64,000 nucleotides of DNA from a bacterium (GTDB lineage Bacteria > Patescibacteriota > Minisyncoccia > JACQLN01), in the NCBI GenBank assembly GCA_030697795.1, contig JAUYOV010000004.1, positions 211,334 through 275,333 on the forward strand, in the 5' to 3' direction. The stretch's first letter is position 1; each line of letters begins with the position of its first letter. A program made the translations under genes and the position numbers. The notes below the pieces were generated by a model. That model was given only the letters and a program-made list of their open reading frames with translations. It was not told the DNA's origin and made no database searches. This document shows positions 1,276 to 53,817 of this stretch, piece by piece.

Positions 1276-2199
1276 TTATAACTGGTTAGTTAATTTTTTA
1301 ATTAGCCTGTCTAGATCCTCTTGAGAATAAAAACTAATAGCGAGCTTGCCCTTTTCGCGGCTACCCGAAAAAGAAACGGGCGTGCCTAAGGTATCTTGGA
1401 TTGTTTTTTTATAATTTTCTAGTTCAGGGTCACTGACTCTTGCGGTTTTGGCTTTATAAGATTCATCTTGGCGAACAATATCTTCTAATTCGCGCACCGA
1501 TAAAGTTTTTTTAATAATTTCGTCGGTTAAAAATATCTGGCGTTCAGAATTTTTAATAGCGAGCAGTACTTTAGCGTGGCCTTCGCTTATTTTCCCATCG
1601 GAAATGCTTCGCTGAACTTCGTAGGGTAAATCTAAAAGCCTAACTCTGTTGGCTATAACCTCGCGGCTTTTGCCAACTTTTTGCGCTACTTGCATTTGAG
1701 TTAACTTAAATTCGGTCATCAAACGTTCGTAAGCCAAAGCTTCTTCTATGGCGTTTAGGTTTTGACGCTGAACATTTTCTATTAAAGCTATTTCTAACCT
1801 TGTAGCATTGTCGGGATTTTTAATGATTACCGGAACTTGTCGAAGCCCCGCAATACCCGCAGCCCTTAAGCGGCGTTCGCCTGCTATTAACTGATATTCC
1901 ACCCTAGTGCCGCTAGAAACAGCCAGCTCAACTTTAGAAACCAGAAGCGGCTGAAGCATGCCGTATTGCTTCATAGAATCGGCCAGGCTGTTAAGTTCGG
2001 TTTCGTTAAATTCTTTTCTGGGCTGGTAAGGATTTGGTTTTATTTTTTCGAGTTCAATATAAAAAACACTTTCTTGCCTGGCGGTGGTGACCACGCTTTT
2101 TGCTGGAACAGAAAAATTAGTTTGTTCTTTGGGAGAAGAAACTTCTTCACCATTCTTTTTTTGAGGAATCAATGATTCCAAGCCTCTACCTAGGGCCAT
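1276..2199 (-). CDS. parB: ParB/Spo0J partition protein
   Basis: ParB box LIAGERRLRAA, HTH region and C-terminal dimerisation region. Adjacent to parA. Confidence 0.85.
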   Translation of the reverse strand: MALGRGLESLIPQKKNGEEVSSPKEQTNFSVPAKSVVTTARQESVFYIELEKIKPNPYQPRKEFNETELNSLADSMKQYGMLQPLLVSKVELAVSSGTRVEYQLIAGERRLRAAGIAGLRQVPVIIKNPDNATRLEIALIENVQRQNLNAIEEALAYERLMTEFKLTQMQVAQKVGKSREVIANRVRLLDLPYEVQRSISDGKISEGHAKVLLAIKNSERQIFLTDEIIKKTLSVRELEDIVRQDESYKAKTARVSDPELENYKKTIQDTLGTPVSFSGSREKGKLAISFYSQEDLDRLIKKLTNQL

Positions 2200-2210
2200 A
2201 TTTTTTTAAA

Positions 2211-3200
2211 TTAAATTTGATTAGTATTTTCTTCTAAAGAAACTTCTGAACTATTTTCTATATTCACTGAAGCTAACGTAGTAACAATTTCTGTATCAAC
2301 AAACTCGTTACTTGCTATAGTCGCCACGACACCACTTTCTGGTTCTAAATTATTAATACTTTCTGTATTTGATATATTTTCTTCAATAGCAGTTTCAGCA
2401 ACGGCTTCTGTGGCAACAGATACTTCTGGCGCACCAACATTCTCTAAACCTAATATTTCTTCGGCTAACTGTCTATATGCTTTGCCCCCTTTGGAATAAA
2501 GATCATATTGTAAAATTGTTTTGCCAAAAGAAGGCGCTTCGGCCAAAGACACACAACGCGGTATAACAGAATTAAAAACTCGCCCCGGAAAATTTCTGTT
2601 CATTTCTTTGACCACATCACGGTTTAACCTGTTGCGCTTATCGTACATGGTTAAGACCGCACCCAACACATTAATATTATGCCCCAGATTATCGCGAATT
2701 AATTCTATAGTTTTTAAAAGATGCCCAATGCCTTCCAAAGCGTAATATTCGCATTGTACAGGAATAACAACGTAATCGGAAGCAACTAAACCATTTATGG
2801 TAAGTAGGCCAAGTGATGGTGGTGAATCAATTAAAACATAATCGTAATTTGTGGAAACTCGGCCTAAGGCTTCGCGCAAACGAAACTCTCTGTTAGGTTG
2901 AGTTACTAATTCTATGCCCGCGCCGGCTAAATTTGTATTGGACGGCAAAAGATCCAAACCCATTACACCGGTTTTTCTTATGGCTTCTTCGGGTAATAAG
3001 CCATTAGTTAAAACATGATACAAATTCCATTCTATTTGATATGGATCCACGCCCAGACCAGAAGTTGTATTAGCTTGTGGGTCTAAATCCACCACCAAAA
3101 CAGACTTGCCATGCGCTGCCAAAAAAGCGCCTACGTTTATAACGCTGGTTGATTTCCCTACACCGCCTTTTTGGTTAACAAAAGAAATGGTTCTAGACAC
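2211..3200 (-). CDS. parA: ParA/Soj partition ATPase with acidic low-complexity C-terminal tail
   Basis: Deviant Walker A KGGVGKST at the N-terminus. ParA-family length plus an extension of about 70 aa. Confidence 0.85.
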   Translation of the reverse strand: MSRTISFVNQKGGVGKSTSVINVGAFLAAHGKSVLVVDLDPQANTTSGLGVDPYQIEWNLYHVLTNGLLPEEAIRKTGVMGLDLLPSNTNLAGAGIELVTQPNREFRLREALGRVSTNYDYVLIDSPPSLGLLTINGLVASDYVVIPVQCEYYALEGIGHLLKTIELIRDNLGHNINVLGAVLTMYDKRNRLNRDVVKEMNRNFPGRVFNSVIPRCVSLAEAPSFGKTILQYDLYSKGGKAYRQLAEEILGLENVGAPEVSVATEAVAETAIEENISNTESINNLEPESGVVATIASNEFVDTEIVTTLASVNIENSSEVSLEENTNQI

Positions 3201-3612: not shown

Positions 3613-3699
3613 GCCCAGGTGGCGGAATTGGCAGACGCACAGGACTCAAAATCCTGCGATGGCAACATCATGAGGGTTCGACCCCCTTCCTGGGCACCA
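3613..3699 (+). tRNA. tRNA-Leu (anticodon CAA)
   Basis: Cloverleaf: 7-bp acceptor stem GCCCAGG/CCTGGGC; anticodon stem CAGGA/TCCTG with loop CTCAAAA, giving anticodon CAA; long variable arm typical of tRNA-Leu; T-loop TTCGACC; discriminator A; CCA is encoded. Confidence 0.85.
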
Positions 3700-9169: not shown

Positions 9170-10406
9170 ATTTACTAGCTAAACTTTTAACCTCTTCTCT
9201 TATTTTACCTAAATCTTCTTTATTTTGTAAGGTTTTGTGTATAAGTTCAGCTATTTTTTTCATTTCTTCTTCTTTCATACCCCTCGTAGTTACCGCAGGC
9301 ATACCAATTCTTATGCCCGAAGGATCCCACGGCTTACGCGGATCAAATGGAATCATATTTTTATTAACTACAATGCCCACTTCTTCTAGTTTTTTTCCAG
9401 CCTCGTCACCGGTTAATTTTAAAGGCGTAACATCTACCAACATTAAATGATTATCTGTTCCGCCAGATACCACAGAAAAACCTAGATTAGTTAATTCTGA
9501 AGCTAATGCTTTTGAATTTTTAACAACTTGTTCTGCATATTCTTTGAAATTAGATTGACTAGCTTCTTCTAAAGAAATTCCGATAGCTGCGATCGTATGT
9601 AATTGTGGTCCGCCTTGCAAGCCCGGAAAAACTGCCTTGTCTATATTTTCCGATAATTCTTGTTTAGAAATAATTATGGCACCCCTTGGACCGCGCAAAG
9701 TTTTATGTGTAGTTGTAGTAACAATATCGGCATAAGGCAGTGGCGATGGATGCGCGCCGCCAATAACTAAGCCAGCAATGTGTGATAAATCCACCATCAA
9801 CTTTGCACCAACTGCATCGGCAATTTCTTTAAACTTTTTAAAATCTATTATTCTAGGATATGCTGTGGCGCCCGCCACAATTAGTTTAGGCTTAAATTTT
9901 TTAGCCTGATCCAAAATTAGTTCATAATCCAACAAACCATCTTTGCCTACGCCGTAATGTTCAAATTTAAATAATTTTCCGGTAAAGCTTACTTTATGCC
10001 CATGGGTTAAATGTCCGCCATGTTCTAAAGACATAGCCAAAACCTTATCTCCTAGCTCTAAAACCCCTAAATAGGCGGCCAAATTAGCAATGCTACCCGA
10101 ATAAGGTTGAACATTTACACCCCAGTCATTATTGGATATTCCAAAAACTTTATAAACCAAACTTTTTGTTTCATCTTCTATTTTATCTACAATTTTGTTG
10201 CCAAAATAATAACGCTGGTGCGATTTACCCTCGGCATATTTATTAGTTAAAACTGAACCTAAGGCTAATAAAACATTTTTTGAAACTAAATTTTCCGAAG
10301 GGATTAAATTTATAGTTTCATTTTGACGCTGTTCTTCTTCTTTTAAGAATTTGGCTATATTTGAATCCATCTTATGTAAAAATTTGATACTTCTGAGCGA
10401 CTTCAA
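9153..10406 (-). CDS. glyA: Serine hydroxymethyltransferase
   Basis: 417 aa, SHMT-like along its length, including the PLP-lysine region TTTTHKTLRGPRG. Confidence 0.9.
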   Translation of the reverse strand: MKSLRSIKFLHKMDSNIAKFLKEEEQRQNETINLIPSENLVSKNVLLALGSVLTNKYAEGKSHQRYYFGNKIVDKIEDETKSLVYKVFGISNNDWGVNVQPYSGSIANLAAYLGVLELGDKVLAMSLEHGGHLTHGHKVSFTGKLFKFEHYGVGKDGLLDYELILDQAKKFKPKLIVAGATAYPRIIDFKKFKEIADAVGAKLMVDLSHIAGLVIGGAHPSPLPYADIVTTTTHKTLRGPRGAIIISKQELSENIDKAVFPGLQGGPQLHTIAAIGISLEEASQSNFKEYAEQVVKNSKALASELTNLGFSVVSGGTDNHLMLVDVTPLKLTGDEAGKKLEEVGIVVNKNMIPFDPRKPWDPSGIRIGMPAVTTRGMKEEEMKKIAELIHKTLQNKEDLGKIREEVKSLASKFVFNG

Positions 10407-10429
10407 GGAGGTTCAACTTCTTAAAATAG

Positions 10430-10470
10430 GGAGGATGAAGGTGCTCCTCCTTGCCAGGAGCGAAGAAGTA
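10430..10470. repeat. Small palindromic repeat family, intergenic copy (glyA/tsaC intergenic) with hairpin GGAGGATGAAGGTGCTCCTCC
   Basis: Contains ...CCAGGAGCGAAGAAG. Confidence 0.5.
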
Positions 10471-10483
10471 TTAAATTTTGGAG

Positions 10484-11134: not shown

Positions 11135-11145
11135 GTAATACTAAT

Positions 11146-11243
11146 TTACGAATTTATGCGAATGATACGAATACTATATGCGAATATTTTTATTCGTGCA
11201 TCTATTTGTATAATTCGTATGCATTCGTATATTGGCATTGCAC
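11146..11243 (+). repeat. About 95-bp repeat Y, copy 1 (TACGAAT heptamer array; between the leuS stop and the tsaC start)
   Basis: Homologous to 16283-16367. Four ACGAAT/GCGAAT direct repeats at about 10-bp spacing, then inverted ATTCGTAT copies. Confidence 0.8.
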
Positions 11244-13729
11244 TATACCACGAAGTTAATAAACCTGTCTTTAATAAAAATAACTTTTTTTACGGGGGAG
11301 ACAAGATACTTAGAAATATTTTTGTTGTTTTTAGCCGCCGTTTCAACCTCTTTTTGAGAAGAATCTGCTGGCATTTTAATAACCGCGCGCATTCTGGCAT
11401 TAACCTGCACTACTATGTCTACCTCCTTGTCTTTGACCAGTTTAACGTCAAACTTTGGCCAAGGCGCTATATGAATAGATTTTTTATTCTTTAAAATTTC
11501 TCTAAATATTTCCTCGCTCATATGTGGTGCAAAAGGCGCTAAAATCTTAGCAAAAATTTCTAGTTCGCTTTTGCCAACAGATTCTATATTGGCTTCAAAT
11601 TCATTTAACAAAACCATTAAAGCCGAGACCGAAGTATTGTAATTTAAATTTTCTAAATCTTCTGTAACTTTTTTGATTGTCTTGTGTATCTTTGTTTGTA
11701 TATTGGAATTTGCTTGCCCTTCCGAAGCTCTGAAAGAGCGAAGGAGGGTGATTTGTTTAGAAATTAGAAATTGGGAATTAGAAATTTTCCAGATTCTTTC
11801 CAAGAATCTGATTATCCCTTTTATACCACCATCTCTAAAATCACCACCTTGATCGAACGGACCCAAAAACATTAAGTACATTCTTAAAACATCGGCGCCG
11901 TAATTTTTAATATATTCGTCGGGATTAACCACATTCCCCTTGGATTTTGACATTTTAGCGCCATCTTTTATTAACAAACCGTGGGCACGGAATTTTTTAA
12001 ATGGTTCGTCAAAATTAGTTAAACGCAGGTCCTTGAATACCATTGCTAAAAAACGCACATACAATAAATGCAAAACAGAATGCTCCGCGCCACCAATATA
12101 CATATCTACCGGGCACCATTTTTTAGTTACAGATTGATCCCAAGCGTATTTCTTTTCTTTAACAGAAGCATAACGCAAATAATACCAAGCCGAATCTAAG
12201 AAAGTATCGGAAACATCGGTCTCGCGTCTCGCCATACCTTCGCATTTAGGGCATTTAACTTTATAAAATTTTTCATCGGCCGCTAAAGGCGACTGGCTCG
12301 TACCAGTTGGCCTAAAGTTTTTTATGTAAGGCAATCTAACCGGTAAATCTTTTTCGGGCACCACAACCCAACCTGGATTTTCCAACTCTCCCAAATTAAA
12401 TTCTCCCTTATTTTTGAGATTTGATTTTTGAGATTTGATTTTTTCTGCGCAGTTTTCACAGAAAACAAGCGGTATAGGCGCACCCCAATAACGCTGTCTG
12501 GAAATTAGCCAGTCACGAAGCCGGAATTGAATTGTTTTTTTACCTCCACTCTTTTTTATTCCTTCTTCAATAGAGACTAAAGGTGCGCTACTCACTGGTA
12601 ATTTGAATTTTTGGGCAAATTCTAAATCACGCTCATCGTGCGCTGGAACACCCATAACTGCGCCTGTGCCGTAACCTGCTAAAACATAATCCGAAATCCA
12701 AACCGGAACTTTTTCGTTGTTGGCTGGGTTAATGGCCGAGATACCAGAAAAAACTCCTGTTTTTTCTGGACCCCGACCCTCATGAGGCGTCGGGGTTATA
12801 TTATTTTTTATATACTCCCTGACCTCATTCGGCGCTTGCCAGCCGATATCTAACCAAGACTTTGCTTTCTCGGGCGAAATTGCAATAAACGTTACACCAA
12901 AAACTGTATCTGGGCGTGTAGTAAAAACTTCCAAATACGCCGATTCACGCTGATCTGACGCAGATTTACGCAGAAAAATTCCGCGTTGATCCGCGTTAAT
13001 TTCCGCGTTGATCCGCGTAAGGGGAAATTTTATAGAAGCACCTTCCGATTTACCTATCCAATTTTTTTGAGCTATTTTTACTTTTTCGCTCCAATCTATT
13101 TTATCTAAACCTTTTAAAAGTTTATCGGCGTATTTAGTTATTCTAAAAAACCATTGCTCTAATTCTTTTTTAATAACTTTAGTATTACATCTTTCACATT
13201 CACCACTTATTACTTGTTCATCGGCTAAAACTGTTAAACACGAAGGGCACCAATTAACCGCCGATTTTTTGCGGTAAGCCAAACCATTTTTATATAACTG
13301 AATAAAAATCCATTGAGTCCATTTATAATATTCAGGGTCGTAAGTTTCTAGTTTTTCGTGCCAAGCAAAACCATTGCCTATCATTTGCAGTTGGCGATAA
13401 AAATTTTTCTCGGAAACTCTGGCTTGATCCATCGGGTGTTCGCCAATTTTTAAAGCGTAGTTTTCGGAATGTATGCCAAAACCATCTAAACCAATCGGCT
13501 CAAAAACGTTATAGCCCTGCATTCTTTTAAATCGCCCGTAAATATCGCTCCCCACAAAAGCGTACACATTACCCACGTGTAAGCCTTCAGCTGAAGGATA
13601 TGGAAACATCATTAGGTTATAGAAAGGATTCTTAGCGTTTTTAAGATCCGGTTCGTAAACCTTCTCGGCCAGCCATTTTTTGCGCCATTTAGATTCTACT
13701 CTCTTGTGGTTGTATTTAGCCATTTGCAT
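11243..13729 (-). CDS. leuS: Leucyl-tRNA synthetase, carrying several low-complexity or repeat-derived in-frame insertions
   Basis: HIGH-type motif HVGNVYAF; KMSKS; editing-domain TTRPDT. Inserts at about 11717-11750, 12410-12450 and 12979-13023. Confidence 0.9.
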   Translation of the reverse strand: MQMAKYNHKRVESKWRKKWLAEKVYEPDLKNAKNPFYNLMMFPYPSAEGLHVGNVYAFVGSDIYGRFKRMQGYNVFEPIGLDGFGIHSENYALKIGEHPMDQARVSEKNFYRQLQMIGNGFAWHEKLETYDPEYYKWTQWIFIQLYKNGLAYRKKSAVNWCPSCLTVLADEQVISGECERCNTKVIKKELEQWFFRITKYADKLLKGLDKIDWSEKVKIAQKNWIGKSEGASIKFPLTRINAEINADQRGIFLRKSASDQRESAYLEVFTTRPDTVFGVTFIAISPEKAKSWLDIGWQAPNEVREYIKNNITPTPHEGRGPEKTGVFSGISAINPANNEKVPVWISDYVLAGYGTGAVMGVPAHDERDLEFAQKFKLPVSSAPLVSIEEGIKKSGGKKTIQFRLRDWLISRQRYWGAPIPLVFCENCAEKIKSQKSNLKNKGEFNLGELENPGWVVVPEKDLPVRLPYIKNFRPTGTSQSPLAADEKFYKVKCPKCEGMARRETDVSDTFLDSAWYYLRYASVKEKKYAWDQSVTKKWCPVDMYIGGAEHSVLHLLYVRFLAMVFKDLRLTNFDEPFKKFRAHGLLIKDGAKMSKSKGNVVNPDEYIKNYGADVLRMYLMFLGPFDQGGDFRDGGIKGIIRFLERIWKISNSQFLISKQITLLRSFRASEGQANSNIQTKIHKTIKKVTEDLENLNYNTSVSALMVLLNEFEANIESVGKSELEIFAKILAPFAPHMSEEIFREILKNKKSIHIAPWPKFDVKLVKDKEVDIVVQVNARMRAVIKMPADSSQKEVETAAKNNKNISKYLVSPVKKVIFIKDRFINFVV
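11717..11750. repeat. Small palindromic repeat family (core CGAAGCTYTRAGCGAAGGAGG), copy in frame inside leuS
   Basis: Shares the core with copies at 10430-10470, 14263-14293, 35714-35770, 41711-41776 and 53781-53812. Confidence 0.7.
12979..13023. repeat. ATCCGCG-unit GC-rich repeat (TTCCGCGTTGATCCGCGTTAATTTCCGCGTTGATCCGCG) in frame inside leuS
   Basis: Related copies lie in ileS (34941-35009) and polX (48637-48676). All three are in minus-strand genes. Confidence 0.7.
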
Positions 13730-13793: not shown

Positions 13794-14690
13794 TTAAATC
13801 CCAAAAATAGCGCGGGTGTTTTCAACAGTATGATGAGAAACTTCTTCAAAATCAATGCCTTTTATTTCGCCGATTTTTTTGGCTACTTCTATAACATAGG
13901 CGGGCTCGTTGCGTTGCCCGCGATAAGGCGCGGGCGTGACATAAGGCGCATCGGTTTCTAATAAAATTCTATTTACCGGAACTGTTTTTATAATTTCATC
14001 GTAATCGCGAGTAAAGGTTACTACACCGCCAAACGTAAAATAAAAACCCATATCCAAAAGCATGGTCGCTTGTTTTATGTTGCCACTAAAGAAATGGATA
14101 ATACCGGGGATAATTTGTAGCTTGGAGCTATTAGCTTTTAAGGTATCTATCAAATCATCAAAAGCTTCGCGGCAATGAATCATTAAAGGCTTTTTGACTT
14201 CGTGAGCTAATTCTATATGCTTTATAAAAGTTAGTTTTTGTTTTTCCTGGCGTAGCTCAACTGATCCGCCTTCGCTAAAAGCTTCGGCGGATGCTCGATT
14301 TTGCAATCTCTCACTCCGTTCGCGAGCAAAATCGGCATAATAATCTAAACCACATTCACCAATCGCCACAACTTTTGGATGTAAAGCTAATTTTTTATAT
14401 TCTTCGTAATCAAAAACTTCGCCTCTACTAGTAAATTCCATTCCTCCTTCACCAAGCTCAGCTTGGTCGTGGAAAGATTTATCGGTATGCACCGGATGCA
14501 AACCGACCGTGGCATAAACACCTTCGTTATATTTTTCGGCAAGTTTGATTGCTTCAAGAGAAGTATCTAGCTGTGTGCCAACATTTACCAGCCAAATTCC
14601 AGCATCTAAAGATCTTTTAATAACTTCGTCTCTATCGTCTTTATAGGCTGCAAATTGAATATGGGTATGTGCGTCTATTAGTTTTGGCAT
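13794..14690 (-). CDS. tatD: TatD-family metal-dependent hydrolase/DNase, with an in-frame repeat insertion
   Basis: N-terminus IDAHTHIQF and conserved TatD His/Asp/Glu ligands. Insert of about 45 aa (SERLQNRASAEAFSEGG...) contains a copy of the small palindromic repeat. Confidence 0.8.
   Translation of the reverse strand: MPKLIDAHTHIQFAAYKDDRDEVIKRSLDAGIWLVNVGTQLDTSLEAIKLAEKYNEGVYATVGLHPVHTDKSFHDQAELGEGGMEFTSRGEVFDYEEYKKLALHPKVVAIGECGLDYYADFARERSERLQNRASAEAFSEGGSVELRQEKQKLTFIKHIELAHEVKKPLMIHCREAFDDLIDTLKANSSKLQIIPGIIHFFSGNIKQATMLLDMGFYFTFGGVVTFTRDYDEIIKTVPVNRILLETDAPYVTPAPYRGQRNEPAYVIEVAKKIGEIKGIDFEEVSHHTVENTRAIFGI
14263..14293. repeat. Small palindromic repeat family, copy in frame inside tatD (reverse orientation CTTCGCTAAAAGCTTCGG)
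   Basis: Reverse complement of the CGAAGCTTTAGCGAAG core. Confidence 0.6.
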
Positions 14691-14707
14691 GTTTTTGAGA
14701 AAAAAAT

Positions 14708-14785
14708 ATCATTCCGAACAGCATTATGGAGAAGACTAATTTATAAATAAAGAGGCTCCATATCGTCTGTGAGGAATGATATTTT
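14708..14785 (+). repeat. About 78-bp structured repeat X, copy 1 (upstream of tatD)
   Basis: About 90% identical to 29077-29157. Nested inverted repeats (TCATTCC/GGAATGA; ATGGAG/CTCCAT). Confidence 0.8.
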
Positions 14786-14787
14786 TA

Positions 14788-16269
14788 CTAGTTTAATCTA
14801 GGAAACAAATTCTCGCCTTTCTTAAAGTTTATTGCGGATTCTGTAAACCAGATTTGTTTTCTAATTTTTTCGCCTGTTTCTGGTAAAAATGGTTCAACCA
14901 AATTTAGTATAACACCTAGCAAGTAGCCAGAATTAGCCATAACTTTCCTAAGATTTTCAGTTGAAACCACGTTTGACGTGGCGTCTTTAATTTCCCAAGG
15001 TTTTTTATCGTTAATATATTTATCGGCAAAAGAAACCAAACCCCAAACATTTATTAAAGCTTCGTGTAATTTAATTTCGTCTAAAGAAGATTCATATGCT
15101 TTATAAAAATCGTTGCAAGCTTTTTTAACTTCTGGTTCTATATCCGTAGCAAAATCAAACTTTACCGGGTTTATTTTTTCGCCCAAAGTAACTGTGCGCG
15201 CTACCAAATTTCCTAAACCATTAGCTAAGTCTGCGGAATATCTATCTTCAAACTTTCTTAAACTAAAATCTCCGTCATCGTAAGAAGGAATTTCTCGTAA
15301 AAGATAGTAACGTAACGCATCTGTGCCATATTTTTGAACCAGTGGCACAGGATCCACAATATTACCCAAACTTTTAGACATCTTTTGCCCTTCCACCGAA
15401 ATAAAACCATGAACAAAAATAGCTTGGGGTAATGGCAAACTAGCCGATAAAAGTATACCCGGCCAAATAGCCGCATGAAAACGTAAAATATCTTTGCCTA
15501 CAACTTGAAGATCGGCTGGCCAAAGTTTTTTAAATTGCTCGGTTTCATCGCCATAGCCAATAGCTGTAATGTAATTAGCTAAAGCATCACACCAGACGTA
15601 TATAACTTGGTCGGGATCGCCAGGCACCGGTACGCCCCACGGCAAATCTTTTTTAGGCCTAGAAAAGCTAACATCCTCTAAACCAGATTCTATAAAAGAT
15701 AAAATTTCATTTTTACGAGATTCGGGAATTATTTTTAATTCGTCATTTTTAATTTTAGAAGCAATCTGGCTTTGATATTTTGAAAGCCTAAAAAACCAGT
15801 TTTCTTGTTCTACTGTTTCTGGTGCTTTTTGGTGATCGGGGCATTTACCATCCACCAAATCTTTTTCTGTTTTAAAAGATTCGCAACCCACGCAATAAAG
15901 CCCGTTGTATTTTTTCTTATAGATATCACCGGCTTCCGAAAGTTCCTGCCATAATTTTTGAACACCTGGCCAATGAACTTCTTGATCGGTTGTTCTAATA
16001 AACCCATCCCAAGAAAGATTTAAAACATTTTTTAACTGTTTAAAATATTCTGCGTTTTCGTTTACAAATTCCTGTGCATTTTTATTCTCTCTTTCGGCTG
16101 CGCGAAAAATCTTAACACCGTGTTCGTCGGTACCCGTTAAAAAGAAAACTTCATCACCTTTTATTCTGTGATAACGCGCCAAAACATCCGCTTGAATCTT
16201 TTCTAAAGCGTGTCCAATGTGCGGTTTCGCATTAACATAATCAATGGCGGTTGTAATATAAAACTTCAT
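14788..16269 (-). CDS. metG: Methionyl-tRNA synthetase (short form, no C-terminal tRNA-binding domain)
   Basis: HIGH motif PHIGHALE and KMSKS; Met-RS catalytic core. 493 aa. Confidence 0.9.
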   Translation of the reverse strand: MKFYITTAIDYVNAKPHIGHALEKIQADVLARYHRIKGDEVFFLTGTDEHGVKIFRAAERENKNAQEFVNENAEYFKQLKNVLNLSWDGFIRTTDQEVHWPGVQKLWQELSEAGDIYKKKYNGLYCVGCESFKTEKDLVDGKCPDHQKAPETVEQENWFFRLSKYQSQIASKIKNDELKIIPESRKNEILSFIESGLEDVSFSRPKKDLPWGVPVPGDPDQVIYVWCDALANYITAIGYGDETEQFKKLWPADLQVVGKDILRFHAAIWPGILLSASLPLPQAIFVHGFISVEGQKMSKSLGNIVDPVPLVQKYGTDALRYYLLREIPSYDDGDFSLRKFEDRYSADLANGLGNLVARTVTLGEKINPVKFDFATDIEPEVKKACNDFYKAYESSLDEIKLHEALINVWGLVSFADKYINDKKPWEIKDATSNVVSTENLRKVMANSGYLLGVILNLVEPFLPETGEKIRKQIWFTESAINFKKGENLFPRLN

Positions 16270-16282
16270 AAGTATACTAATC

Positions 16283-16367
16283 TACGAATCTATGCGAATT
16301 ATACGAATGGATTTAACGAATATTTGTAACTTATTTGTATCATTCGTATCCATTTGTATATTGGCAT
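16283..16367 (+). repeat. About 85-bp repeat Y, copy 2 (immediately upstream of the metG start)
   Basis: See copy 1. Confidence 0.8.
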
Positions 16368-16369
16368 AT

Positions 16370-18712: not shown

Positions 18713-19621
18713 TTAAAAATAGAATAGCAGTTTTTGTTTTATATTAAAACCCTTACAATGCCTCAAAACTCCCAAATACGAATCTACATTTTTCTCATTA
18801 ATCTTTCTTAACATCCTTCTTTTTGTTTTAGTCCTCAAAACCCTATGGTTAGGCAAAACCACATAACCCAGAAAATCTATACCCTGCCTGTATTTACGAA
18901 TAATTATTTTGTCTGGATGCAAAAATAGCTTTAGATTCTCAAAAAGAAAAGTATTAATTTTGTAAGACAGATTTAATAAATAATATTTATTACTTCCTAA
19001 AATAACAAAATCATCGCAGTAACGAATATAATACTTTTCTTTTAAGTTATGTTTAACAAATTGGTCTAATTCGTTTAAATAAATATTGGCAAATAACTGG
19101 CTGGTTACATTGCCTAAGGGTAACCCTTTGTTAAAACTACCTATTATTTTCTCAACCAACCATACAGCATTATCGTCTTTGATCTTTAGTTGAATCAATT
19201 TAATTAGAGCATCTTGATCTATGGAATCAAAAAACTTTTTAATATCACACTTTAAAGCAAAAATAGTTTGGCTATTGTTTTGGCTTAACTTACGACAAAA
19301 AGTTTCTAGTCTTGTTACTGCTTTGTGTGTTCCTTTGCCTATTCGGCAAGAATAAGAATCAAACATAAAATGTCTATCGAATATTGGATATAAAACTCTA
19401 AAAACAGCTTGATGTAAAACCCTGTCGCGTACACAAGCTTTATGGATATGACGCAATTTTGGGTCGGTAACATAAAAAGGAATATACTGGCTGTGTTTAT
19501 ATGTTTTATTTTTTAATTCGCTATGCAGTTGAAACAGATTATCTTCTAGGTTAAAATCAAATTCTTGAACATCCAACCTTTTTCTTTTGCCTTTTTTAAA
19601 TTCGCGCCAAGCTAAAAACAA
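18713..19621 (-). CDS. DGR reverse transcriptase (RT1)
   Basis: Matches DGR RTs along its length. N-terminal LAWREFKKGKR. Motif 4 is LGNVTSQLFANIYL, the I/LGxxxSQ DGR hallmark. YxDD motif is YCDD. Confidence 0.85.
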   Translation of the reverse strand: MFLAWREFKKGKRKRLDVQEFDFNLEDNLFQLHSELKNKTYKHSQYIPFYVTDPKLRHIHKACVRDRVLHQAVFRVLYPIFDRHFMFDSYSCRIGKGTHKAVTRLETFCRKLSQNNSQTIFALKCDIKKFFDSIDQDALIKLIQLKIKDDNAVWLVEKIIGSFNKGLPLGNVTSQLFANIYLNELDQFVKHNLKEKYYIRYCDDFVILGSNKYYLLNLSYKINTFLFENLKLFLHPDKIIIRKYRQGIDFLGYVVLPNHRVLRTKTKRRMLRKINEKNVDSYLGVLRHCKGFNIKQKLLFYF

Positions 19622-20024
19622 GTTTTCTAAGCTAATAATTTTTTTAAAAATATTATGGAAAATTTCTCCATTAAAGCCCCCCCCCTACGGAGTTGAAATA
19701 TCGCTGGTGCATAAAATTTGTGAATTGTATAAATTATTCCACGAATGTTTGAAAATATTTCCCAAGACGGAACGATTTACTTTGGGCCAAAAAATTGAGA
19801 ACACCATTCTAGAAATTTTAGAACTAATCCTTTCAGCCAGTTACCAATCAAAATATGGAAAAAGTGAAACCTTAATAAGAGGTAGCGATAAAAATGACCT
19901 TCTAAAGTATCTTATCCGTCTTGCTCACGATACCAAATCAATCAATATAAAAAAATATCTATTAGTTGAGGAAAAGGTTTTAGAAATAGGTCGTATGTTA
20001 GGTGGCTGGATAAAATCCAACTAA
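19587..20024 (+). CDS. avd: Avd-like accessory variability determinant (four-helix-bundle family); true start probably near 19709-19718
   Basis: Paralogous to the two other Avd-like ORFs and shares the C-terminal IGRMLGGWI motif. Alignment to those paralogs places the N-terminus near VHKICELYK. Confidence 0.7.
   Translation: MPFLNSRQAKNKFSKLIIFLKILWKISPLKPPPYGVEISLVHKICELYKLFHECLKIFPKTERFTLGQKIENTILEILELILSASYQSKYGKSETLIRGSDKNDLLKYLIRLAHDTKSINIKKYLLVEEKVLEIGRMLGGWIKSN
19677..19686. repeat. Homopolymer C10 in the divergent RT1/avd1 promoter region
   Basis: 10 consecutive C, 56 bp upstream of the RT1 start codon and about 25-30 bp upstream of the likely avd1 start. Confidence 0.9.
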
Positions 20025-20055
20025 ACTTTGCAAAGAGCGCCTAAAAAATAAGGCG
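20024..20055 (+). terminator. Intrinsic terminator after avd1 (AGAGCGCC-loop-GGCGCTCT followed by a T-run)
   Basis: 9-bp GC stem and U-tract. Lies between avd1 and TR1. Confidence 0.5.
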
Positions 20056-20180
20056 CTCTTTTGTTTGGAAACTACCAGAGGACGACCAGCTATGTTGTCG
20101 TTGCGATTGCTAGACCAATTGTAGTTGACGTTGGCTAGACCACCGTTCTCACGGTTACCACCGTAAAGCCGGCTGGAGTC
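20054..20180 (-). repeat. DGR template repeat TR1 (AAC-rich on the minus strand)
   Basis: About 127 nt, nearly identical to 20491-20618. All 8 differences are A in TR1 versus C/T/G in VR1. TR1 encodes GGNRENGGLANVNYNWSSNRNDNIAGRPLV. Confidence 0.85.
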
Positions 20181-20431
20181 CTCAAATTTTTGCTTTAAAC
20201 CGTCCATAATCACCGAAAATCTAAATATAAATTTTCTGAAATCCGCATCCCACGGATAGTTTTTTACTCGGCAACTCTTAAATAATCTAAGAATACCCGA
20301 TCTAGTTTAAAGCAAGGAGTTTCGTTATTTCCTGTTTTAAACAGGAGAGTAAATGCGAGAATAAACCTTAGTCTATTCTTCATTAGCTTTACTCAAGGAA
20401 AATTTTACCAAATTTGTGAAAATAAAAAAAT

Positions 20432-20451
20432 CCCCCAACTTACGTTGGGGG
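20432..20451 (-). promoter_or_regulatory. GC-rich hairpin (CCCCCAAC-GTAA-GTTGGGGG) about 40 bp downstream of VR1
   Basis: 8-bp stem with a GNRA-type loop on the target strand. Confidence 0.4.
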
Positions 20452-20486
20452 AAAATCCAAGGGCCAAAGCCCAAGGGGAAAAGAAC

Positions 20487-21320
20487 CTACTTTGCGAAAC
20501 TCACCAGAGGACGACCAGCTATGCTGCCGCTGCGATTGCTAGACCAATCGTAGTTGACGTAGGCTAGACCACCGTACTCACGGTGACCACCGTAAAGCCG
20601 GCTGGAGTCCTCAAACTTATCGTCGAACCACTCCCACATATTGAATCGGCCGCGATTGCTGTCGTAGAGATTGCCAATGGCATTGGACTCTACAGCCCGC
20701 TCCAACCGAACCTGTTCGGGTTTGAAACCGAATGCTTCGGCGATAGCAGGACAAACCACATCTCGCCATTCATCGTTGGTAATGGCAAAACGAGAGCCCG
20801 AAGGAGTATTATCGTGTTTGCCGATTTTTCCTTCTTCGCGCAATTTACTGATGATTAGCGCGAGAGGGTCATTGGAAAATACTTGCGTGCCGTCGGTGTA
20901 ATTCACACCGACGGTGAAATCAGCTAGATACCAACCTCTGTAGAGTTTGGCACTGTCGGGGGCGAGCTTGCCTTCCCCGATTTTCTGGTAGAACCATTTT
21001 TCAGGTTTTACCCAATTCTTGAGCTTGCAATTCTCGCCAATTCCTTCCATCGGCAGATATACCGGCCTGAAGTCGAACCCAGCCCACTTGGCCAAGTTCT
21101 CTTCGGTGAATTCGGGAGGCAGAGGATCAACATCCACACGGAAGAACTTTTGAAGCTTCTTCTGTGTTGCCTCCACTAAAGCTACCAGCAAAGACACTAT
21201 GCGATGTTCGTTGAAAGCTTTAACACTTTCCAAAGTGTGACTGCCGTCATCTATCTGACGGAAAAAATCTTTGAGCACGCCGGACCACGCCGACATCTCA
21301 CCGACTGGGGCATTAGCCAT
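20487..21320 (-). CDS. DGR target protein 1 (FGE/C-type-lectin-like C-terminal variable domain); GC-rich
   Basis: VR1 lies at the C-terminus. The pattern WEWFDD...RLYGG...GRPLV resembles FGE-type CLec folds. Strong SD AGGAGA upstream. Confidence 0.75.
   Translation of the reverse strand: MANAPVGEMSAWSGVLKDFFRQIDDGSHTLESVKAFNEHRIVSLLVALVEATQKKLQKFFRVDVDPLPPEFTEENLAKWAGFDFRPVYLPMEGIGENCKLKNWVKPEKWFYQKIGEGKLAPDSAKLYRGWYLADFTVGVNYTDGTQVFSNDPLALIISKLREEGKIGKHDNTPSGSRFAITNDEWRDVVCPAIAEAFGFKPEQVRLERAVESNAIGNLYDSNRGRFNMWEWFDDKFEDSSRLYGGHREYGGLAYVNYDWSSNRSGSIAGRPLVSFAK
20491..20618 (-). repeat. DGR variable repeat VR1 (3-prime end of target 1)
   Basis: Encodes GGHREYGGLAYVNYDWSSNRSGSIAGRPLV at the C-terminus of the 277-aa ORF. 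Confidence 0.85.
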
Positions 21321-25542: not shown

Positions 25543-25870
25543 ATAGATGAATTGTATCGTAACAAGAGAAAAATATCACGCTAAAGGAATGTTATAATAT
25601 TCATATCCTGCTAATGCAGTTTGAACCATGGTTCAAACTCGCGGGATATCTCATTTTTGCCTTTCCGCCAAAGCTTTACGGGCGGTAAAAGAATCGCCAG
25701 AGTATTAAACCTTACGGGGTTTAATAGCGTGCGAACTAAAATGGAGATGGAACTTCTTGCTTGTTTTTGGTGGAGATTCCGCCAAAGGCGGATGCTCCCA
25801 AGTAAAATTCAGGAAAGAAGAAACATAAATTTCATACTTTCCGGTGATATTGGATGGAAACAAGCAAAAT

Positions 25871-25992
25871 CTTGACTCCGATGGCAACCGCGTTAGCGTC
25901 GGCAACTTCGATCAGAACGGCCTCAACATCAACAACAACTGGGACGATAACCGCAACGACAATCTTGGCCTGGCCTCCTCTCGAACTTCCAT
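25871..25992 (+). repeat. DGR template repeat TR2 (AAC-rich on the plus strand, non-coding location)
   Basis: Matches the reverse complement of 27629-27749. Encodes VGNFDQNGLNINNNWDDNRNDNLGLASSR, versus VR2 VGDFDRFGLYFDYDHDDNRYDSLGLASSR. Confidence 0.75.
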
Positions 25993-26002
25993 CTGCAACC
26001 AT

Positions 26003-26026
26003 AAAACCCTCCTTTAGGAGGGTTTT
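26003..26026. terminator. Bidirectional hairpin AAAACCCTCC-TTTA-GGAGGGTTTT between TR2 and the avd2 stop
   Basis: 10-bp stem flanked by A/T runs on both sides. Confidence 0.5.
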
Positions 26027-26037
26027 ATGGTTTTGCA

Positions 26038-26388
26038 TCAATGAGTTTTTGACGAGCGGATCCAACCGCCTAACATCCGCCCTATCTCATTAACCATTTC
26101 CTGAATTAAAATATATTTTTTATTCTCTAAAACACCAATATCTTTAGCCAAGCGGACATAAACCCTAAAAAGATTGAGCTTAACACTAACTCTTTCTAAG
26201 TATGTTACTCTTTTGAGCTTATCCAAACTGCTTATTTCCAACAAATAGCCCAATATCTCAATCAAAATCAAATTGCATTTCTCGCCTAAAGAATACTTGT
26301 CTTGCTTGGGAAAACCTTTCAAACAAGCATAAAATTCTTTATATAAATCGTAGGTTTTTTTAAATAGCGGAATATCAAAACTATCCAT
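26038..26388 (-). CDS. avd: Avd-like accessory variability determinant (avd2)
   Basis: 116 aa. C-terminus EIGRMLGGWIRS. Paralog of avd1 and avd3. Start diverges from RT2 with a 2-nt overlap. Confidence 0.75.
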   Translation of the reverse strand: MDSFDIPLFKKTYDLYKEFYACLKGFPKQDKYSLGEKCNLILIEILGYLLEISSLDKLKRVTYLERVSVKLNLFRVYVRLAKDIGVLENKKYILIQEMVNEIGRMLGGWIRSSKTH

Positions 26389-27382
26389 GAAAATTTATCA
26401 AAATATATACGAACAAATAATCTCTGCCGAAAATTTGTTTCTAGCTTGGGCAGAATTCAAAAAAGATAAACAAAAAAGAAAAGACGTTATGCAATTTGAA
26501 TACAGGCTGGAAAAAAATATTTTAGGCTTGTGCCAAGAACTAAAAAATCAAACATATAAGCATAGTCCTTATAGTAATTTTTATATAACCGACCCCAAAC
26601 CCAGGCACATTCACAAAGCATTGGTTAGAGACAGAGTGGTGCACCATTCAGTTTTTAATATCCTTAATCCTGTTTTTGAAAAAACTTTTATCTTTAATTC
26701 TTATTCCTGCAGAAAAAACAAAGGCACTCACAAGGGCATAAACCAATTACACAAAATTTTAAGAAAAATAAGCCAAAACAATCATAAACCATGCTTTATA
26801 TTAAAATGCGATATTAAAAAATTCTTTCAATCAGTTAATCACGGTATTTTGTTAAATATTATTGATCGAAAAATATACGATGAAAAAGCATTGGCCTTAA
26901 TTAAAGAAATTGTAGAGAGTTTTAAACCCGGGTTGCCCATAGGCAACCTAACCAGCCAATTATTTGCCAATATTTATTTAAATAATCTGGACCAATATAT
27001 AAAGCACCATTTAAAAATTCCCTTTTATATAAGATATACCGATGATTTTGTGATTATTTATAACGATTTGGAAAAACTAAAACAGTGGCTTAGCCAGATT
27101 CAGGAATTTTTAAATGTAAACCTAAAACTACGTCTGCATCCCAATAAAGTTATTCTGCGCAAATATCATCAAGGAACTGATTTTTTGGGCTATGTGCAAT
27201 TTCCCCATTATTGTATTTTGCGCCCTAGAACCGAAAGAAGAATAATGAAAAGGATACAGCAGGGAGTTTCTGAACAATCGCTAAATTCATATCTAGGTGT
27301 GCTTTCTCATGCTAATAGTTATAAATTATCGGAAAAAATCAAAAACTTGTTTTGGTTTAATAAAAAAGAAAACCCGTCTTGA
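26387..27382 (+). CDS. DGR reverse transcriptase (RT2)
   Basis: IGNLTSQLFANIYLN (SQ motif); IRYTDDFV. Matches RT1 and RT3 along its length. Confidence 0.85.
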   Translation: MKIYQNIYEQIISAENLFLAWAEFKKDKQKRKDVMQFEYRLEKNILGLCQELKNQTYKHSPYSNFYITDPKPRHIHKALVRDRVVHHSVFNILNPVFEKTFIFNSYSCRKNKGTHKGINQLHKILRKISQNNHKPCFILKCDIKKFFQSVNHGILLNIIDRKIYDEKALALIKEIVESFKPGLPIGNLTSQLFANIYLNNLDQYIKHHLKIPFYIRYTDDFVIIYNDLEKLKQWLSQIQEFLNVNLKLRLHPNKVILRKYHQGTDFLGYVQFPHYCILRPRTERRIMKRIQQGVSEQSLNSYLGVLSHANSYKLSEKIKNLFWFNKKENPS

Positions 27383-27427
27383 TGGACGAGTTAAAAAATA
27401 ATTATAATTCCACAATTAAAAATTACG

Positions 27428-27463
27428 TTGGTTGGTTGGTTGGTTGGTTGGTTGGTTGGTTGG
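27428..27463. repeat. Microsatellite (TTGG)9
   Basis: Perfect tetranucleotide tandem repeat between the RT2 stop and the target 2 stop. Confidence 0.9.
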
Positions 27464-27567
27464 AATTGGAACTCTCTTTCATTATAAATTTAGTATAACA
27501 TAATTGGTTATAAAAAATTGAACCCTCGGATTTTCCGAAGGTTCAAGAAACAAAATTCAAAAGCCTG

Positions 27568-27597
27568 CCCCGCACCGAGCTACGCTCTGGTGCGGGG
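27568..27597 (-). promoter_or_regulatory. GC-rich hairpin (CCCCGCACC...GGTGCGGGG) about 30 bp downstream of VR2
   Basis: 9-bp perfect GC stem. Position is analogous to the hairpins after VR1 and VR3. Confidence 0.4.
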
Positions 27598-27622
27598 ATT
27601 CAATACTTCAAAACTCAACTCC

Positions 27623-28396
27623 CTATTTGGAACTTCGAGAGGAGGCCAGGCCAAGACTGTCGTAGCGGTTATCGTCATGGTCGTAGTCGAAGTAGAGGCC
27701 GAACCGATCGAAATCGCCGACGCCAACGCGGCTGCCATCGGAGTCAAGAGACGAAGTTCGGACATAGGTGTGTTCGAACAGTCGCTCACCAGTAGCCATG
27801 AAGTGGCCAATGATGGCGTAGACCACCACTTGCGCCTTCGGTGTTTCCTCGTCTTTGCCGAGTAGCTTCTGCTGATCATCCCAAGTCTTGGACGTGGAAT
27901 CCATAACCGGAGTTTTGCGGACGAGATGCCATCCGACTTCGCCCTTGTATTTGGCAAAAGTCTCCTTGTTGTACCAATCCTGTTCATAAAACAGGCGCTG
28001 ACCGTTGTTAGCGACCTTGCCTCGGATGTCCAGGATTGAGAGAGGAAAAATGGCGACAAGGGTATGCGTGTCTCTTGCCTCGGTAAGCTCGGCTTCAGTG
28101 AACGGAACTTCGGCCAAAGCCGAGATCTGCGCTCGCGTGGGCTTTACACCGAGATACTGAATCGCTTCCTCTACCCCAAACATGTTGCGCCCCATTATCT
28201 GATGGGCCGTTTTCTGCGAAGTGGTGGCTTCATAGCCGCCGTTGCTGATAAGCCTAACCACTTTCGTGGCAAGGTCATTGCCCTTGGAGCCTATGACTCT
28301 CTGGGCAAGTTCATCGTTGAGGCCAGCGGCCTCAAGTTTTAGGAGCACTTCATGCTCTTTGTGCACCGACAGAGTACGGCTCACGATGGTTTCCAT
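27623..28396 (-). CDS. DGR target protein 2 (C-terminal variable domain); GC-rich
   Basis: 257 aa. VR2 at the C-terminus. Strong SD GGAGGT upstream. Confidence 0.75.
   Translation of the reverse strand: METIVSRTLSVHKEHEVLLKLEAAGLNDELAQRVIGSKGNDLATKVVRLISNGGYEATTSQKTAHQIMGRNMFGVEEAIQYLGVKPTRAQISALAEVPFTEAELTEARDTHTLVAIFPLSILDIRGKVANNGQRLFYEQDWYNKETFAKYKGEVGWHLVRKTPVMDSTSKTWDDQQKLLGKDEETPKAQVVVYAIIGHFMATGERLFEHTYVRTSSLDSDGSRVGVGDFDRFGLYFDYDHDDNRYDSLGLASSRSSK
27629..27749 (-). repeat. DGR variable repeat VR2 (3-prime end of target 2)
   Basis: See TR2. About 13 mismatches at TR adenines. In addition, one codon differs at all three positions (TGG in TR, CAT in VR) and there is one C/T difference. 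Confidence 0.75.
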
Positions 28397-29038: not shown

Positions 29039-29076
29039 AAACGGTAAAAGTATAACATGTATCCTAAATTAAAATT

Positions 29077-29157
29077 ATCATCCCGAACAGCATTATGGAG
29101 AAGACTATCTTATATAAATAAAGAGGCTCCATATCGTCTGTGAGGGGTGATAATTTT
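29077..29157 (+). repeat. About 80-bp structured repeat X, copy 2 (upstream of recO-like, divergent from the GT39 gene)
   Basis: See copy 1. The outer stem shows a compensatory change (TT/AA to CC/GG). Confidence 0.8.
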
Positions 29158-29211
29158 TCTTAAAAACTTGCTGGCGAGCGAAAGAGCAATTTTTAAGCTA
29201 AACTATTAAAC

Positions 29212-32267: not shown

Positions 32268-32447
32268 CTGTTATTAGCCGATTCTTATTAGTTTAATCCG
32301 TTCTTGATTTAATTTTACCGCAACTTTCCCACTCCTGTAAAATATTTTTATAACCTTATAGAAACATGAAATTATCTGCACTTGAATTATATCGGTTGTG
32401 GATAACTTTCGGTTAATTTTCGGTATTGAAAATAGTATAATTAAGTT

Positions 32448-38022: not shown

Positions 38023-39018
38023 TTAAGCTAGCGGAAAATAAGACATTAGTAAAATATCGGTAATTCCATAAGTATTCCCATGCTTCAACAACCCCAAATA
38101 AGAACTTACCGTTTCTGGCTCTGGGTTCTCTCCAATTCTTTTCATCATCCGTTTTTTAGTAACTGTTCTTAAAACTTTATGATCTGTAAAATGAACCCAA
38201 CCCAAAAAATCCGCACCCGAAGCTAGAGTTTTGATAAAAACTTTGTCGGGGTGGAGTGTGAGTTTGAGATTTTTAATTAAAAATTCTTGAATCTTTGGGA
38301 TTAAGTTCTCTAACCATTCTTTGTCTTGCGATAAAACCACAAAATCATCGGGGTATCTAATGTAATACTTAACTTTTAATTTATGTTTAACAAACTGGTC
38401 AAACTTGTTCATATAGATATTCACCAAAAGCTGGGAGGTTAAATTGCCCAAGGGCAAACCAATATTGGGTTTTGTTTTAAAACTGGACACAACATTATTG
38501 AGTAACCAAATAATATTTTTGTCTGGTATATATTCAGTTAGTATCTCTAGCAAAACTTTGTGATGAATACTGGAAAAGAATTTTTTAATGTCGCATTTTA
38601 AGACCCAGCAAGTTTTAGTGTTATTTTGACCAACTTTGTAAGCAAAAGACTGAAAACGATTCAGGGCTTTATGCGTGCCTTTGTTCTTTCGGCAAGAAAA
38701 AGAATCGGCTATGAATGTTTTATCAAAGAAAGGGTAAAGAATATGATAAATTGCGTGGTGAAGTAGCCTATCCCGAACTGTGGCTTTATGTATGTTTCGG
38801 GGTTTGGGGTCGGAAATATTGAAAGCTTGGTAAATGCCATGCCGATAAGTGAAATTGACCAAGTCTTGGTTAAGTTGAAAAATATTATCCATTAAATTAA
38901 AGCCAAATTCCTGCACATCTTTTCTTTTTCTCTTGCCTTTGATAAACTCCTGCCAAGCCAATAACAAATTATCAACGCTAATAACATCTTCAAAACTATG
39001 GATCAATTGAGTTTTCAT
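38023..39018 (-). CDS. DGR reverse transcriptase (RT3)
   Basis: LGNLTSQLLVNIYMN (SQ motif); IRYPDDFV. Paralog of RT1 and RT2. Confidence 0.85.
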   Translation of the reverse strand: MKTQLIHSFEDVISVDNLLLAWQEFIKGKRKRKDVQEFGFNLMDNIFQLNQDLVNFTYRHGIYQAFNISDPKPRNIHKATVRDRLLHHAIYHILYPFFDKTFIADSFSCRKNKGTHKALNRFQSFAYKVGQNNTKTCWVLKCDIKKFFSSIHHKVLLEILTEYIPDKNIIWLLNNVVSSFKTKPNIGLPLGNLTSQLLVNIYMNKFDQFVKHKLKVKYYIRYPDDFVVLSQDKEWLENLIPKIQEFLIKNLKLTLHPDKVFIKTLASGADFLGWVHFTDHKVLRTVTKKRMMKRIGENPEPETVSSYLGLLKHGNTYGITDILLMSYFPLA

Positions 39019-39035
39019 AATTCTACATTAAGTAA

Positions 39036-39046
39036 CCCCCCCCCCC
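39036..39046. repeat. Homopolymer C11 in the 53-bp divergent RT3/avd3 intergenic region
   Basis: 11 consecutive C. A similar C10 tract at 19677-19686 sits between RT1 and avd1. Confidence 0.9.
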
Positions 39047-39071
39047 GAGACTTCCACCGCTGATTGATAAA

Positions 39072-39443
39072 ATGAAAAATCTCTATTTTATCTGGTTTCA
39101 ATACTACCAGATTTTACCCAAAGCGCATCGCTACACGCTTGGCCGCAGAATTGACTCTATGTTTATTGAAATAGTTGAAGCGATAGTTACAGCGTCTTTT
39201 CTAACGCAAGAAAAGAAGCTCCCGTTTGTTCAGCACGCCCTTCGCAAAACAGACACGCTTAAAATCCTATTACAAGTATTATGGGAAACTAAATCTTTAG
39301 ATGATAAAAAATATATAGCCGTATCAAAACCTTTAGAAGAAATCGGCAAAATGCTGGGTGGCTGGAATGGCCAGCTTCAAAAACCCCTCGACATAGCTCG
39401 GGATAAAGAAAACTCTCCCCACAAAAAGCAGAGAGAGAAATAA
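39072..39443 (+). CDS. avd: Avd-like accessory variability determinant (avd3)
   Basis: 123 aa. C-terminal EEIGKMLGGW motif. Confidence 0.75.
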   Translation: MKNLYFIWFQYYQILPKAHRYTLGRRIDSMFIEIVEAIVTASFLTQEKKLPFVQHALRKTDTLKILLQVLWETKSLDDKKYIAVSKPLEEIGKMLGGWNGQLQKPLDIARDKENSPHKKQREK

Positions 39444-39447
39444 AGAA

Positions 39448-39824: not shown

Positions 39825-39851
39825 TTCCCTACGACATTACGTCGTAGGGAA
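39825..39851 (-). promoter_or_regulatory. Hairpin TTCCCTACGAC-loop-GTCGTAGGGAA about 54 bp downstream of VR3
   Basis: 11-bp stem. Confidence 0.4.
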
Positions 39852-53812: not shown

Positions 53813-53817
53813 AAATT

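Follow-up and report, generated by a model that had tools for sequence, protein, structure and literature searches.

REP and REPIN elements are non-coding imperfect palindromes that occur in many copies per genome, lie outside genes, often right after stop codons, and are mobilised by RAYT (Y1 HUH) transposases. Their hairpins are kept by compensatory change; they show strand polarity, leave no target-site duplication and persist over the long term. MITEs such as Correia/NEMIS, ERIC, RUP and BOX are about 100 nt long, reside in intergenic or intercistronic gaps and are co-transcribed with their neighbours; they vary in presence between relatives, fall into subfamilies and nest. IS200/IS605 derivatives (PATEs, the SNRs of Deinococcus) also lack target duplications and are recognised as an imperfect hairpin on one strand. 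Integron attC sites, which serve here as an analogy only, are structure-defined imperfect palindromes of 57-141 nt in which unpaired or extrahelical bases confer strand selectivity; each follows directly on the 3' end of an ORF, and the strand that folds is antisense to that ORF. Intrinsic terminators, including bidirectional ones, place a hairpin directly after the stop codon.

These traits, mobilisation by a RAYT apart, have a counterpart in a hairpin family found in a 64,000-nt stretch of Patescibacteria DNA (the window, in what follows). As with REP/REPIN elements, there are multiple extragenic copies with compensatory upkeep of the hairpin (3 in the 64 kb; some 30 distinct ones in related Patescibacteria contigs totalling roughly 260 kb, every one of them intergenic); as with MITEs, presence varied between relatives and one unit recurred in contexts that are unrelated; and, as around terminators, A and T runs accompany many copies. 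The distinguishing marks of each system are another matter. REP units measure 20-40 nt and have a conserved 5' tetranucleotide of the GTAG type and conserved arms, whereas the present elements span 85-110 nt, conserve their apical two thirds, leave the basal stem free to vary and carry no conserved flanking tetranucleotide. MITEs have conserved terminal inverted repeats, target-site duplications and related autonomous insertion sequences; here the terminal 4-9 bp are entirely different from copy to copy and yet pair, no duplication was seen, and there is no known parent insertion sequence. PATEs and SNRs have a pair of dissimilar subterminal hairpins, target the 3' side of a fixed tetra- or pentanucleotide and have their active strand on the lagging-strand template, in contrast to a single hairpin whose 5' flanks share no motif. 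No RYYYAAC/GTTRRRY boxes of the attC type were seen by inspection; the apical part is conserved rather than the base, the neighbours are syntenic housekeeping genes and not cassettes, and there is no integrase. Compared with an intrinsic terminator, the stem is much longer, the internal loops are conserved and the apical loop reaches 24-38 nt, and there are copies 10 nt ahead of co-transcribed genes as well as within divergent promoter gaps. The family lacks the defining features of REPs, MITEs, IS200/IS605 derivatives, attC sites and simple terminators, and its general behaviour is that of bacterial interspersed palindromic repeats.

Two window copies, W1 and W2, had been noticed in a first-pass annotation of the sequence. 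Both are present where they had been placed, on the + strand and in the same orientation, with an identical core (CCGAACAGCATTATGGAGAAGAC ... AAAGAGGCTCCATATCGTCTGTGAGG); the core halves CCGAACAGCATTATGGAGAAGAC and AAAGAGGCTCCATATCGTCTGTGAGG have no further match in the window, 0 being expected by chance. The complete hairpins turned out to be slightly longer than proposed, 14702-14786 for W1 (108.7 bits) and 29071-29157 for W2 (105.5 bits). W1 does lie upstream of tatD, at 11 nt from the start codon (14690, - strand), and is also only 1 nt away from the metG stop codon (14788-14790, - strand). W2 is indeed near the start of the recO-like gene (29038, - strand; 32 nt), but the gap is a divergent one, shared by this RecO_N gene and a PMT_2 glycosyltransferase gene starting at 29212 on the + strand. 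Since the copies are on the + strand and tatD and recO on the - strand, W1 and W2 are antisense to the two genes that they had been thought to lead. The count of two also required revision: a covariance model made from 12 copies detected a diverged member, W3, likewise a complete hairpin, at 10379-10479 (+), between the start of glyA (SHMT; 10370, -) and the stop of a Sua5/YrdC-family gene (10484, -). W3 scored 34 bits with the model of the W1/W2 subfamily (S1) and 100.8 bits with a second model, derived from its own subfamily (S2), which found no additional member within the 64 kb. TatD itself (13794-14690) is 298 aa long, most of its close homologues having 275-279 aa.

The W1 hairpin is built on the + strand from an outer stem whose 5' arm, AAAAATATCATTCC (14702-14715), pairs with 14773-14786 (GGAATGATATTTTT); the letters vary among copies and the pairing is kept. 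Next, a GA (14716-14717) faces another GA (14771-14772) to form a tandem G.A/A.G mismatch in a YGAR context. The middle stem ACAGC (14718-14722) pairs with GTCTGT (14765-14770), leaving T14766 bulged, and the inner stem TATGGAG (14725-14731) pairs with CTCCATA (14756-14762) below an A/U-rich apical loop (14732-14755) carrying a TAnAAT-like hexamer and then AAAGAGG. From base to tip, W1 and W2 share the same order: 14 bp of outer stem, the tandem G.A/A.G mismatch, 5 bp of middle stem interrupted by a single bulged U, the 2x2 internal loop, 7 bp of inner stem and a 24-27-nt A/U-rich loop ending in AAAGAGG. Folding energies are -31.7 kcal/mol for W1 and -33.3 kcal/mol for W2 (z = -6.4), and none of 200 shuffled sequences was as stable. 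In the apical loop of all subfamilies, a TAnAAT-like hexamer precedes a purine-rich RRGAGG by 1-3 nt (14741-14755, 29112-29126 and 10426-10440 in the window copies); this conservation could reflect contact with a protein or an RNA, or else a -10-like box. Resemblances to hammerhead, twister-sister, K-turn and C/D-box motifs were discarded, as the structure is one hairpin that does not branch, lacks a 3-nt bulge and has no hit in Rfam. A coding function was rejected too: the elements contain only ORFs of 6-8 codons, of inconsistent lengths.

The difference between the outer stems of W1 and W2 had been read as a compensatory double change, TT/AA to CC/GG. Comparison of TCATTCC/GGAATGA with TCATCCC/GGGGTGA bears out one compensatory pair (U-A to C-G); the other change converts a U-A pair to a U.G wobble. 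The conclusion drawn from it, that the structure is under selection, is strongly supported by the covariation present in all three helices once more copies are compared, a check that gave a very strong signal. Among 19 distinct S1 copies, 97.8% of the cells are paired and 18 of 26 pairs are altered on both sides, which 0 of 500 shuffles equalled. The altered pairs number 12 of 14 in the outer stem, 3 of 5 in the middle one (A-U to G-C, C-G to U-A) and 3 of 7 in the inner one. Shifting the 3' partners cuts pairing to 35-47%, and RNAalifold, unaided, yields the identical structure. In the seven S2 copies, 96.3% of cells are paired and 17 of 27 pairs covary. Some covariation could be only apparent, arising in the absence of selection when quasi-palindromes are corrected by template switching; however, this process would erase conserved mismatches, and these are kept. 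Insertion into pre-existing palindromes was rejected as the origin of the variable outer stem, the pairing being continuous into the conserved part and the copies at L004 and L013 (loci of relatives are designated by L numbers) having their outer stem in common.

The hairpin is also polar. On the alignment structure, G.U outnumber A.C combinations by 24 to 6 (p = 0.0014), or by 14 to 4 if counted by copies; a fold in a purine/pyrimidine alphabet over-paired and was discarded. The remaining mismatches are purine-purine, and the internal ones are tandem G.A, which would read U.C/C.U on the complement. In 23 of 29 copies, the sense strand folds more stably than the antisense strand, with a margin of 10-22 kcal/mol in S2; for W3 the values are -43.1 kcal/mol (+) and -33.1 kcal/mol (-). 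A mutational strand bias was rejected as the source of the G.U excess: whether linked to replication or to transcription, it predicts the opposite sign, as the + strand is C-rich and is the template strand. Because strand bias predicts the wrong sign and L034 holds both element orientations among co-oriented genes, polarity is a property of the element itself and not of the neighbouring genes.

Copies were collected by pattern scans of genome and metagenome collections followed by model searches of the loci found, and further, syntenic loci were retrieved via RecO and TatD homologues. The pattern scans yielded several Patescibacteria MAGs and groundwater contigs, the remaining hits being high-GC chance matches. 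S1 denotes the original W1/W2 type, in which the tandem G.A is kept; in S1b, U-A pairs take its place; S2 has GAGCGA in both arms, hence two tandem G.A motifs, and the inner stem CAAGGAGG/CCUCCUUG; in S3, part of the apex is replaced by an extra hairpin. The subfamilies are homologous, since the S2 model picks up S1 copies in the same orientation. Small GC-rich hairpins (e.g. CCCGCCAAAGGCGGG, GAATCTTGCTTAGGCAAGATTC) sit inside some copies (L017:1753-1839, L033:14013-14122, L011:4311-4418, L018:5699-5809 and L024:2052-2162), which suggests a further tiny nested repeat.

The family is specific to a single sublineage of Patescibacteria, with affinity to Sungbacteria/Paceibacteria. Syntenic loci of more distant Sungbacteria contain no member and have short or overlapping junctions. 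A gathering-threshold scan of the whole window with Rfam 15 returned the tmRNA and one tRNA only, and E-value scans of S1, S2, S1b and S3 copies against the same release gave only chance hits far below threshold. No match was obtained by blastn against phage and plasmid collections or by a pattern scan of viral contigs, and literature searches turned up no description of interspersed hairpin repeats, MITEs or structured intergenic RNAs from the CPR lineage.

Where genes are in tandem, the base of the hairpin is separated by 1-17 nt from the preceding stop codon and by about 9-18 nt from the following start, with 17 copies antisense and 4 sense to the genes. Four copies are at or beside convergent gene ends (two in L011, one in L016 and L018:5699), and seven occupy the divergent recO/PMT gap. 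The neighbours include aminoacyl-tRNA synthetase genes, an AI-2E transporter, PAP2, SHMT, a PMT glycosyltransferase and hypothetical genes. An A-run and a T-run flank the stem in about two thirds of copies, the T-run being absent in about one third. The element ends show no conserved termini and no target motif, and no common motif was found in the 5' flanks; nor were near-identical recent copies found within any one genome. GC skew is negative almost throughout the window and 46 of its 56 ORFs are on the - strand, so that the - strand is probably the leading strand. Judged by GC skew and gene orientation, the sense strand of the element is usually on the apparent leading-strand template, opposite to the IS200/IS605 bias.

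Relatives share a syntenic block in the order PMT / recO - ... - AI-2E - metG - tatD - leuS - Sua5 - glyA, and comparison of its gaps revealed turnover. The metG-tatD gap holds S1 in the window and L017, S1b in L032, S2 in L033 and a different hairpin family, H2, in L034. The Sua5-glyA gap carries S2 in the window and L033 and is empty (7 nt) in L034. At recO/PMT there is S1 in the window, an S1-like element in L034, S2 in L029, a reversed S3 plus S2 in L024, a reversed S2 plus S1 in L025, and an empty gap of 25 nt in L032. Between AI-2E and metG, the window has H2, L017 a decorated S1 and L034 S2, and L032 is empty. In filled gaps, the 12-26 nt left outside the hairpin correspond in length to the empty orthologous gaps (7-25 nt). 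Next to W2, at 29171-29194 (+), lies a putative 3' half of an S2 element, CTGGCGAGCGAAAGAGCAATTTTT, of which about 20 of 24 bases match, in a comparison by eye, the S2 copy of L029 in the same gap (CTGGCGAGCGCAGGAGTAAGTTTTGC); this segment is probably what remains of an S2 copy after its replacement or disruption by the S1 copy.

The closest relative, L032 (91% MetRS identity; 72% at four-fold sites), has a metG-tatD element more different from that of the window than has L017 (about 50% at four-fold sites), whose core is identical to the window's. This order of similarity points to replacement, and not to simple vertical descent, at metG-tatD. Unit transfer between unrelated flanks was observed: L004 and L013 share a 91-nt unit with 95.6% identity, outer stem included, within flanks that are unrelated. 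No flanking direct repeat surrounds this unit, and none is evident at W1-W3; the empty sites are too diverged for junctions to be placed at the base level. The second family, H2, is unrelated and consists of ACGAAT/ATTCGT units about 11 nt apart (window 11135-11242 and 16270-16369; L034:9893-10000; L032:3308-3407). Its + strand is the stabler one (-40.7 vs -24.9 kcal/mol), and it fills gaps that carry S1 or S2 in relatives.

The explanation we prefer, and hold with no better than even confidence, is that of a mobile hairpin repeat of the REP/REPIN/MITE kind, lineage-specific and with a structure selected in single-stranded form, having no role as leader or operator of DNA-repair genes. The "REP-like element" that the first-pass annotation kept as a fallback comes closest to the evidence. 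Each copy is a small non-coding interspersed repeat of about 85-110 nt forming one long imperfect hairpin, and the family would have colonised the short and few permissive intergenic gaps of compact genomes. The element would move, or be exchanged, as a discrete unit without target-site duplication; copies turn over between related genomes and nest beside or into each other. Selection would act on the hairpin together with its asymmetric core (the tandem G.A, the bulged pyrimidine, the 2x2 internal loop and the A/U-rich loop ending in RRGAGG). As polarity follows the element, and as the base is variable but paired and the asymmetric core conserved, we infer that the structure is read as single-stranded DNA or RNA by a candidate trans-acting enzyme or binding protein; mobility would then proceed via a single-stranded intermediate. 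In operons, the element would be co-transcribed as an intercistronic hairpin, and the 17:4 antisense excess probably stems from selection against the stabler sense hairpin, with its SD-like GGAGG tracts, in mRNA. A search for a transposase or RAYT partner by a weak tblastn on 300 kb, with an IS608 TnpA sequence as query, gave no match, and Pfam scans of 28 ORFs in roughly the first 31.8 kb of the window gave no Y1_Tnp. The missing partner speaks against the mobile reading, as do the lack of conserved termini, of a target motif and of near-identical copies in any one genome, and a strand placement contrary to that of IS200/IS605.

A host-beneficial, cis-acting RNA of operon mRNAs, whose repeat-like spread would be secondary, is the leading competitor, though an unlikely one. 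Such an RNA could serve as a hairpin for processing or stability, terminate transcription partially or in both directions, or keep stop and start close for translational coupling where SD sequences are few. The tight fit between stop and next start speaks for this, as do the A-run and T-run around the stem in most copies and the lack of SD sequences in most genes. Moreover, the metG-tatD gap holds some long hairpin, of varying family, in 5/5 close relatives, and orthologous sites keep the core at a divergence that nearly saturates synonymous (four-fold) positions; occupancy and core identity of this order could mean that the hairpin is useful to the host. However, the best-folding strand is absent from the mRNA in 17 of 21 tandem contexts, and further copies occupy divergent promoter gaps, which contain no gene end. 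The same junctions measure 7-25 nt or overlap in relatives, and the family is missing from more distant syntenic genomes, which argues that a hairpin is not required there. In addition, a consensus terminator scan called none of W1, W2 and W3, canonical short GC-rich terminators being present elsewhere in the window.

We also considered, as a rather speculative option, that the hairpins are substrates of an undescribed single-strand-specific CPR system. In one form, recombination or transposition would use the tandem-G.A hairpin, read as attC or REP sites are, by a different enzyme; in the other, a multi-copy protein-binding RNA module would organise operon expression in genomes that are SD-poor and rich in leaderless genes.

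The RNA-like side of the polarity (G.U wobbles, tandem sheared G.A in a YGAR context, purine-purine mismatches), the strong covariation and the loop nucleotides common to the subfamilies, the TAnAAT-like hexamer followed by RRGAGG, would also suit an independent structured sRNA or protein-binding RNA made from the sense strand of a multi-copy gene family, which might titrate a protein, or the anti-SD of the ribosome, by means of the exposed RRGAGG and the G.A motifs. We regard this as improbable. No conserved promoter lies upstream, where the 5' flank is mostly the start, 9-18 nt away, of an oppositely oriented gene. A candidate -10 box within the 5' arm follows the changes of its pairing partner and does not keep the promoter consensus; the TATCAT read there as a promoter was rejected since its -7 position changes with the pairing partner. 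Promoter-like hits are no commoner than in shuffled sequence, there is neither a consistent U-tract nor an Rfam family, and gain, loss and replacement among relatives are atypical of an sRNA gene.

Very improbable, in our estimate, is an outward promoter in which the TAnAAT of the apical loop acts as a -10 box for the adjacent gene. The hexamer is kept in the loops of S1, S1b and S2, all 7 elements in divergent recO/PMT gaps face the nearest gene, and -10 boxes near the ATG are common among the genes of this genome. The loop element, however, lacks a -35 or a TG extension, A/T-rich loops give -10-like hexamers on both strands, and promoter scans showed no enrichment; in the 17 tandem contexts, transcription would run antisense into the 3' end of the upstream gene.

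The original proposal of a 5' leader RNA or operator co-regulating the DNA-repair genes tatD and recO, suggested by two window copies 11 and 32 nt from their start codons, is hardly tenable: both copies are antisense to these genes, as are 17 of 21 tandem copies to theirs; the third window copy precedes glyA and the family of about 30 flanks functionally unrelated genes; the recO gap of L032 is empty (25 nt) and those of L024, L025 and L029 differ in subfamily or orientation; and the tatD gaps of L033 and L034 hold another subfamily or family. Scattered copies had been named beforehand as speaking against such a role, and scattered they are, with no functional bias among their neighbours.

CPR/Patescibacteria genomes are tiny and densely packed, which makes a persistent repeat family informative. 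The family offers a covariation-rich structural motif with clear strand polarity and can serve to track genome dynamics among uncultured species that are closely related. It also carries a caution for annotators, in that a hairpin upstream of a gene is not, in these genomes, a regulator specific to that gene. A partner enzyme or RNA-binding protein, should there be one, would provide a new handle on DNA movement or operon expression in these organisms.

The window contains three DGR cassettes within 22 kb (18713-21320, 25870-28396 and 38023-40547), which break up a gene block that is contiguous in relatives. The first comprises a reverse transcriptase (RT) gene (18713-19621, -), bAvd (19587-20024, +), a TR (20074-20189) and a VR (20503-20618) within an ORF at 20487-21320 (-). 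The second has its TR at 25870-25991, bAvd at 26038-26388 (-), the RT at 26387-27382 (+) and the VR at 27628-27749 in an ORF at 27623-28396 (-). In the third, the RT (38023-39018, -) is followed by an ORF at 39072-39443 (+), the TR (39447-39572) and a VR (39905-40030) in an ORF at 39903-40547 (-). TR/VR differences fall at one base (T; A on the other strand) in 8/8, 13/18 and 24/25 cases. W1 and W2 were rejected as DGR template or variable repeats: they differ by T>C and A>G, which is not adenine-specific, and both are intergenic.

Most window genes lack a Shine-Dalgarno sequence, and a TATACT/TATAAT-like box, in some cases TG-extended, lies only a few nucleotides upstream of the ATG in many of them (for example at 29039-29060, 32418-32447 and 51648-51680), suggesting leaderless or very short-leader mRNAs. 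parB and parA are at the left end (1276-3200), followed by tRNA-Leu(CAA) at 3613-3699, and the tmRNA gene is at 41262-41623. Finally, periodic repeats of the ATTAGAAAT/TTAGGNATTAG type occur in two intergenic gaps (53699-53817 and 62693-62801) and at one coding site in leuS (11750-11787).
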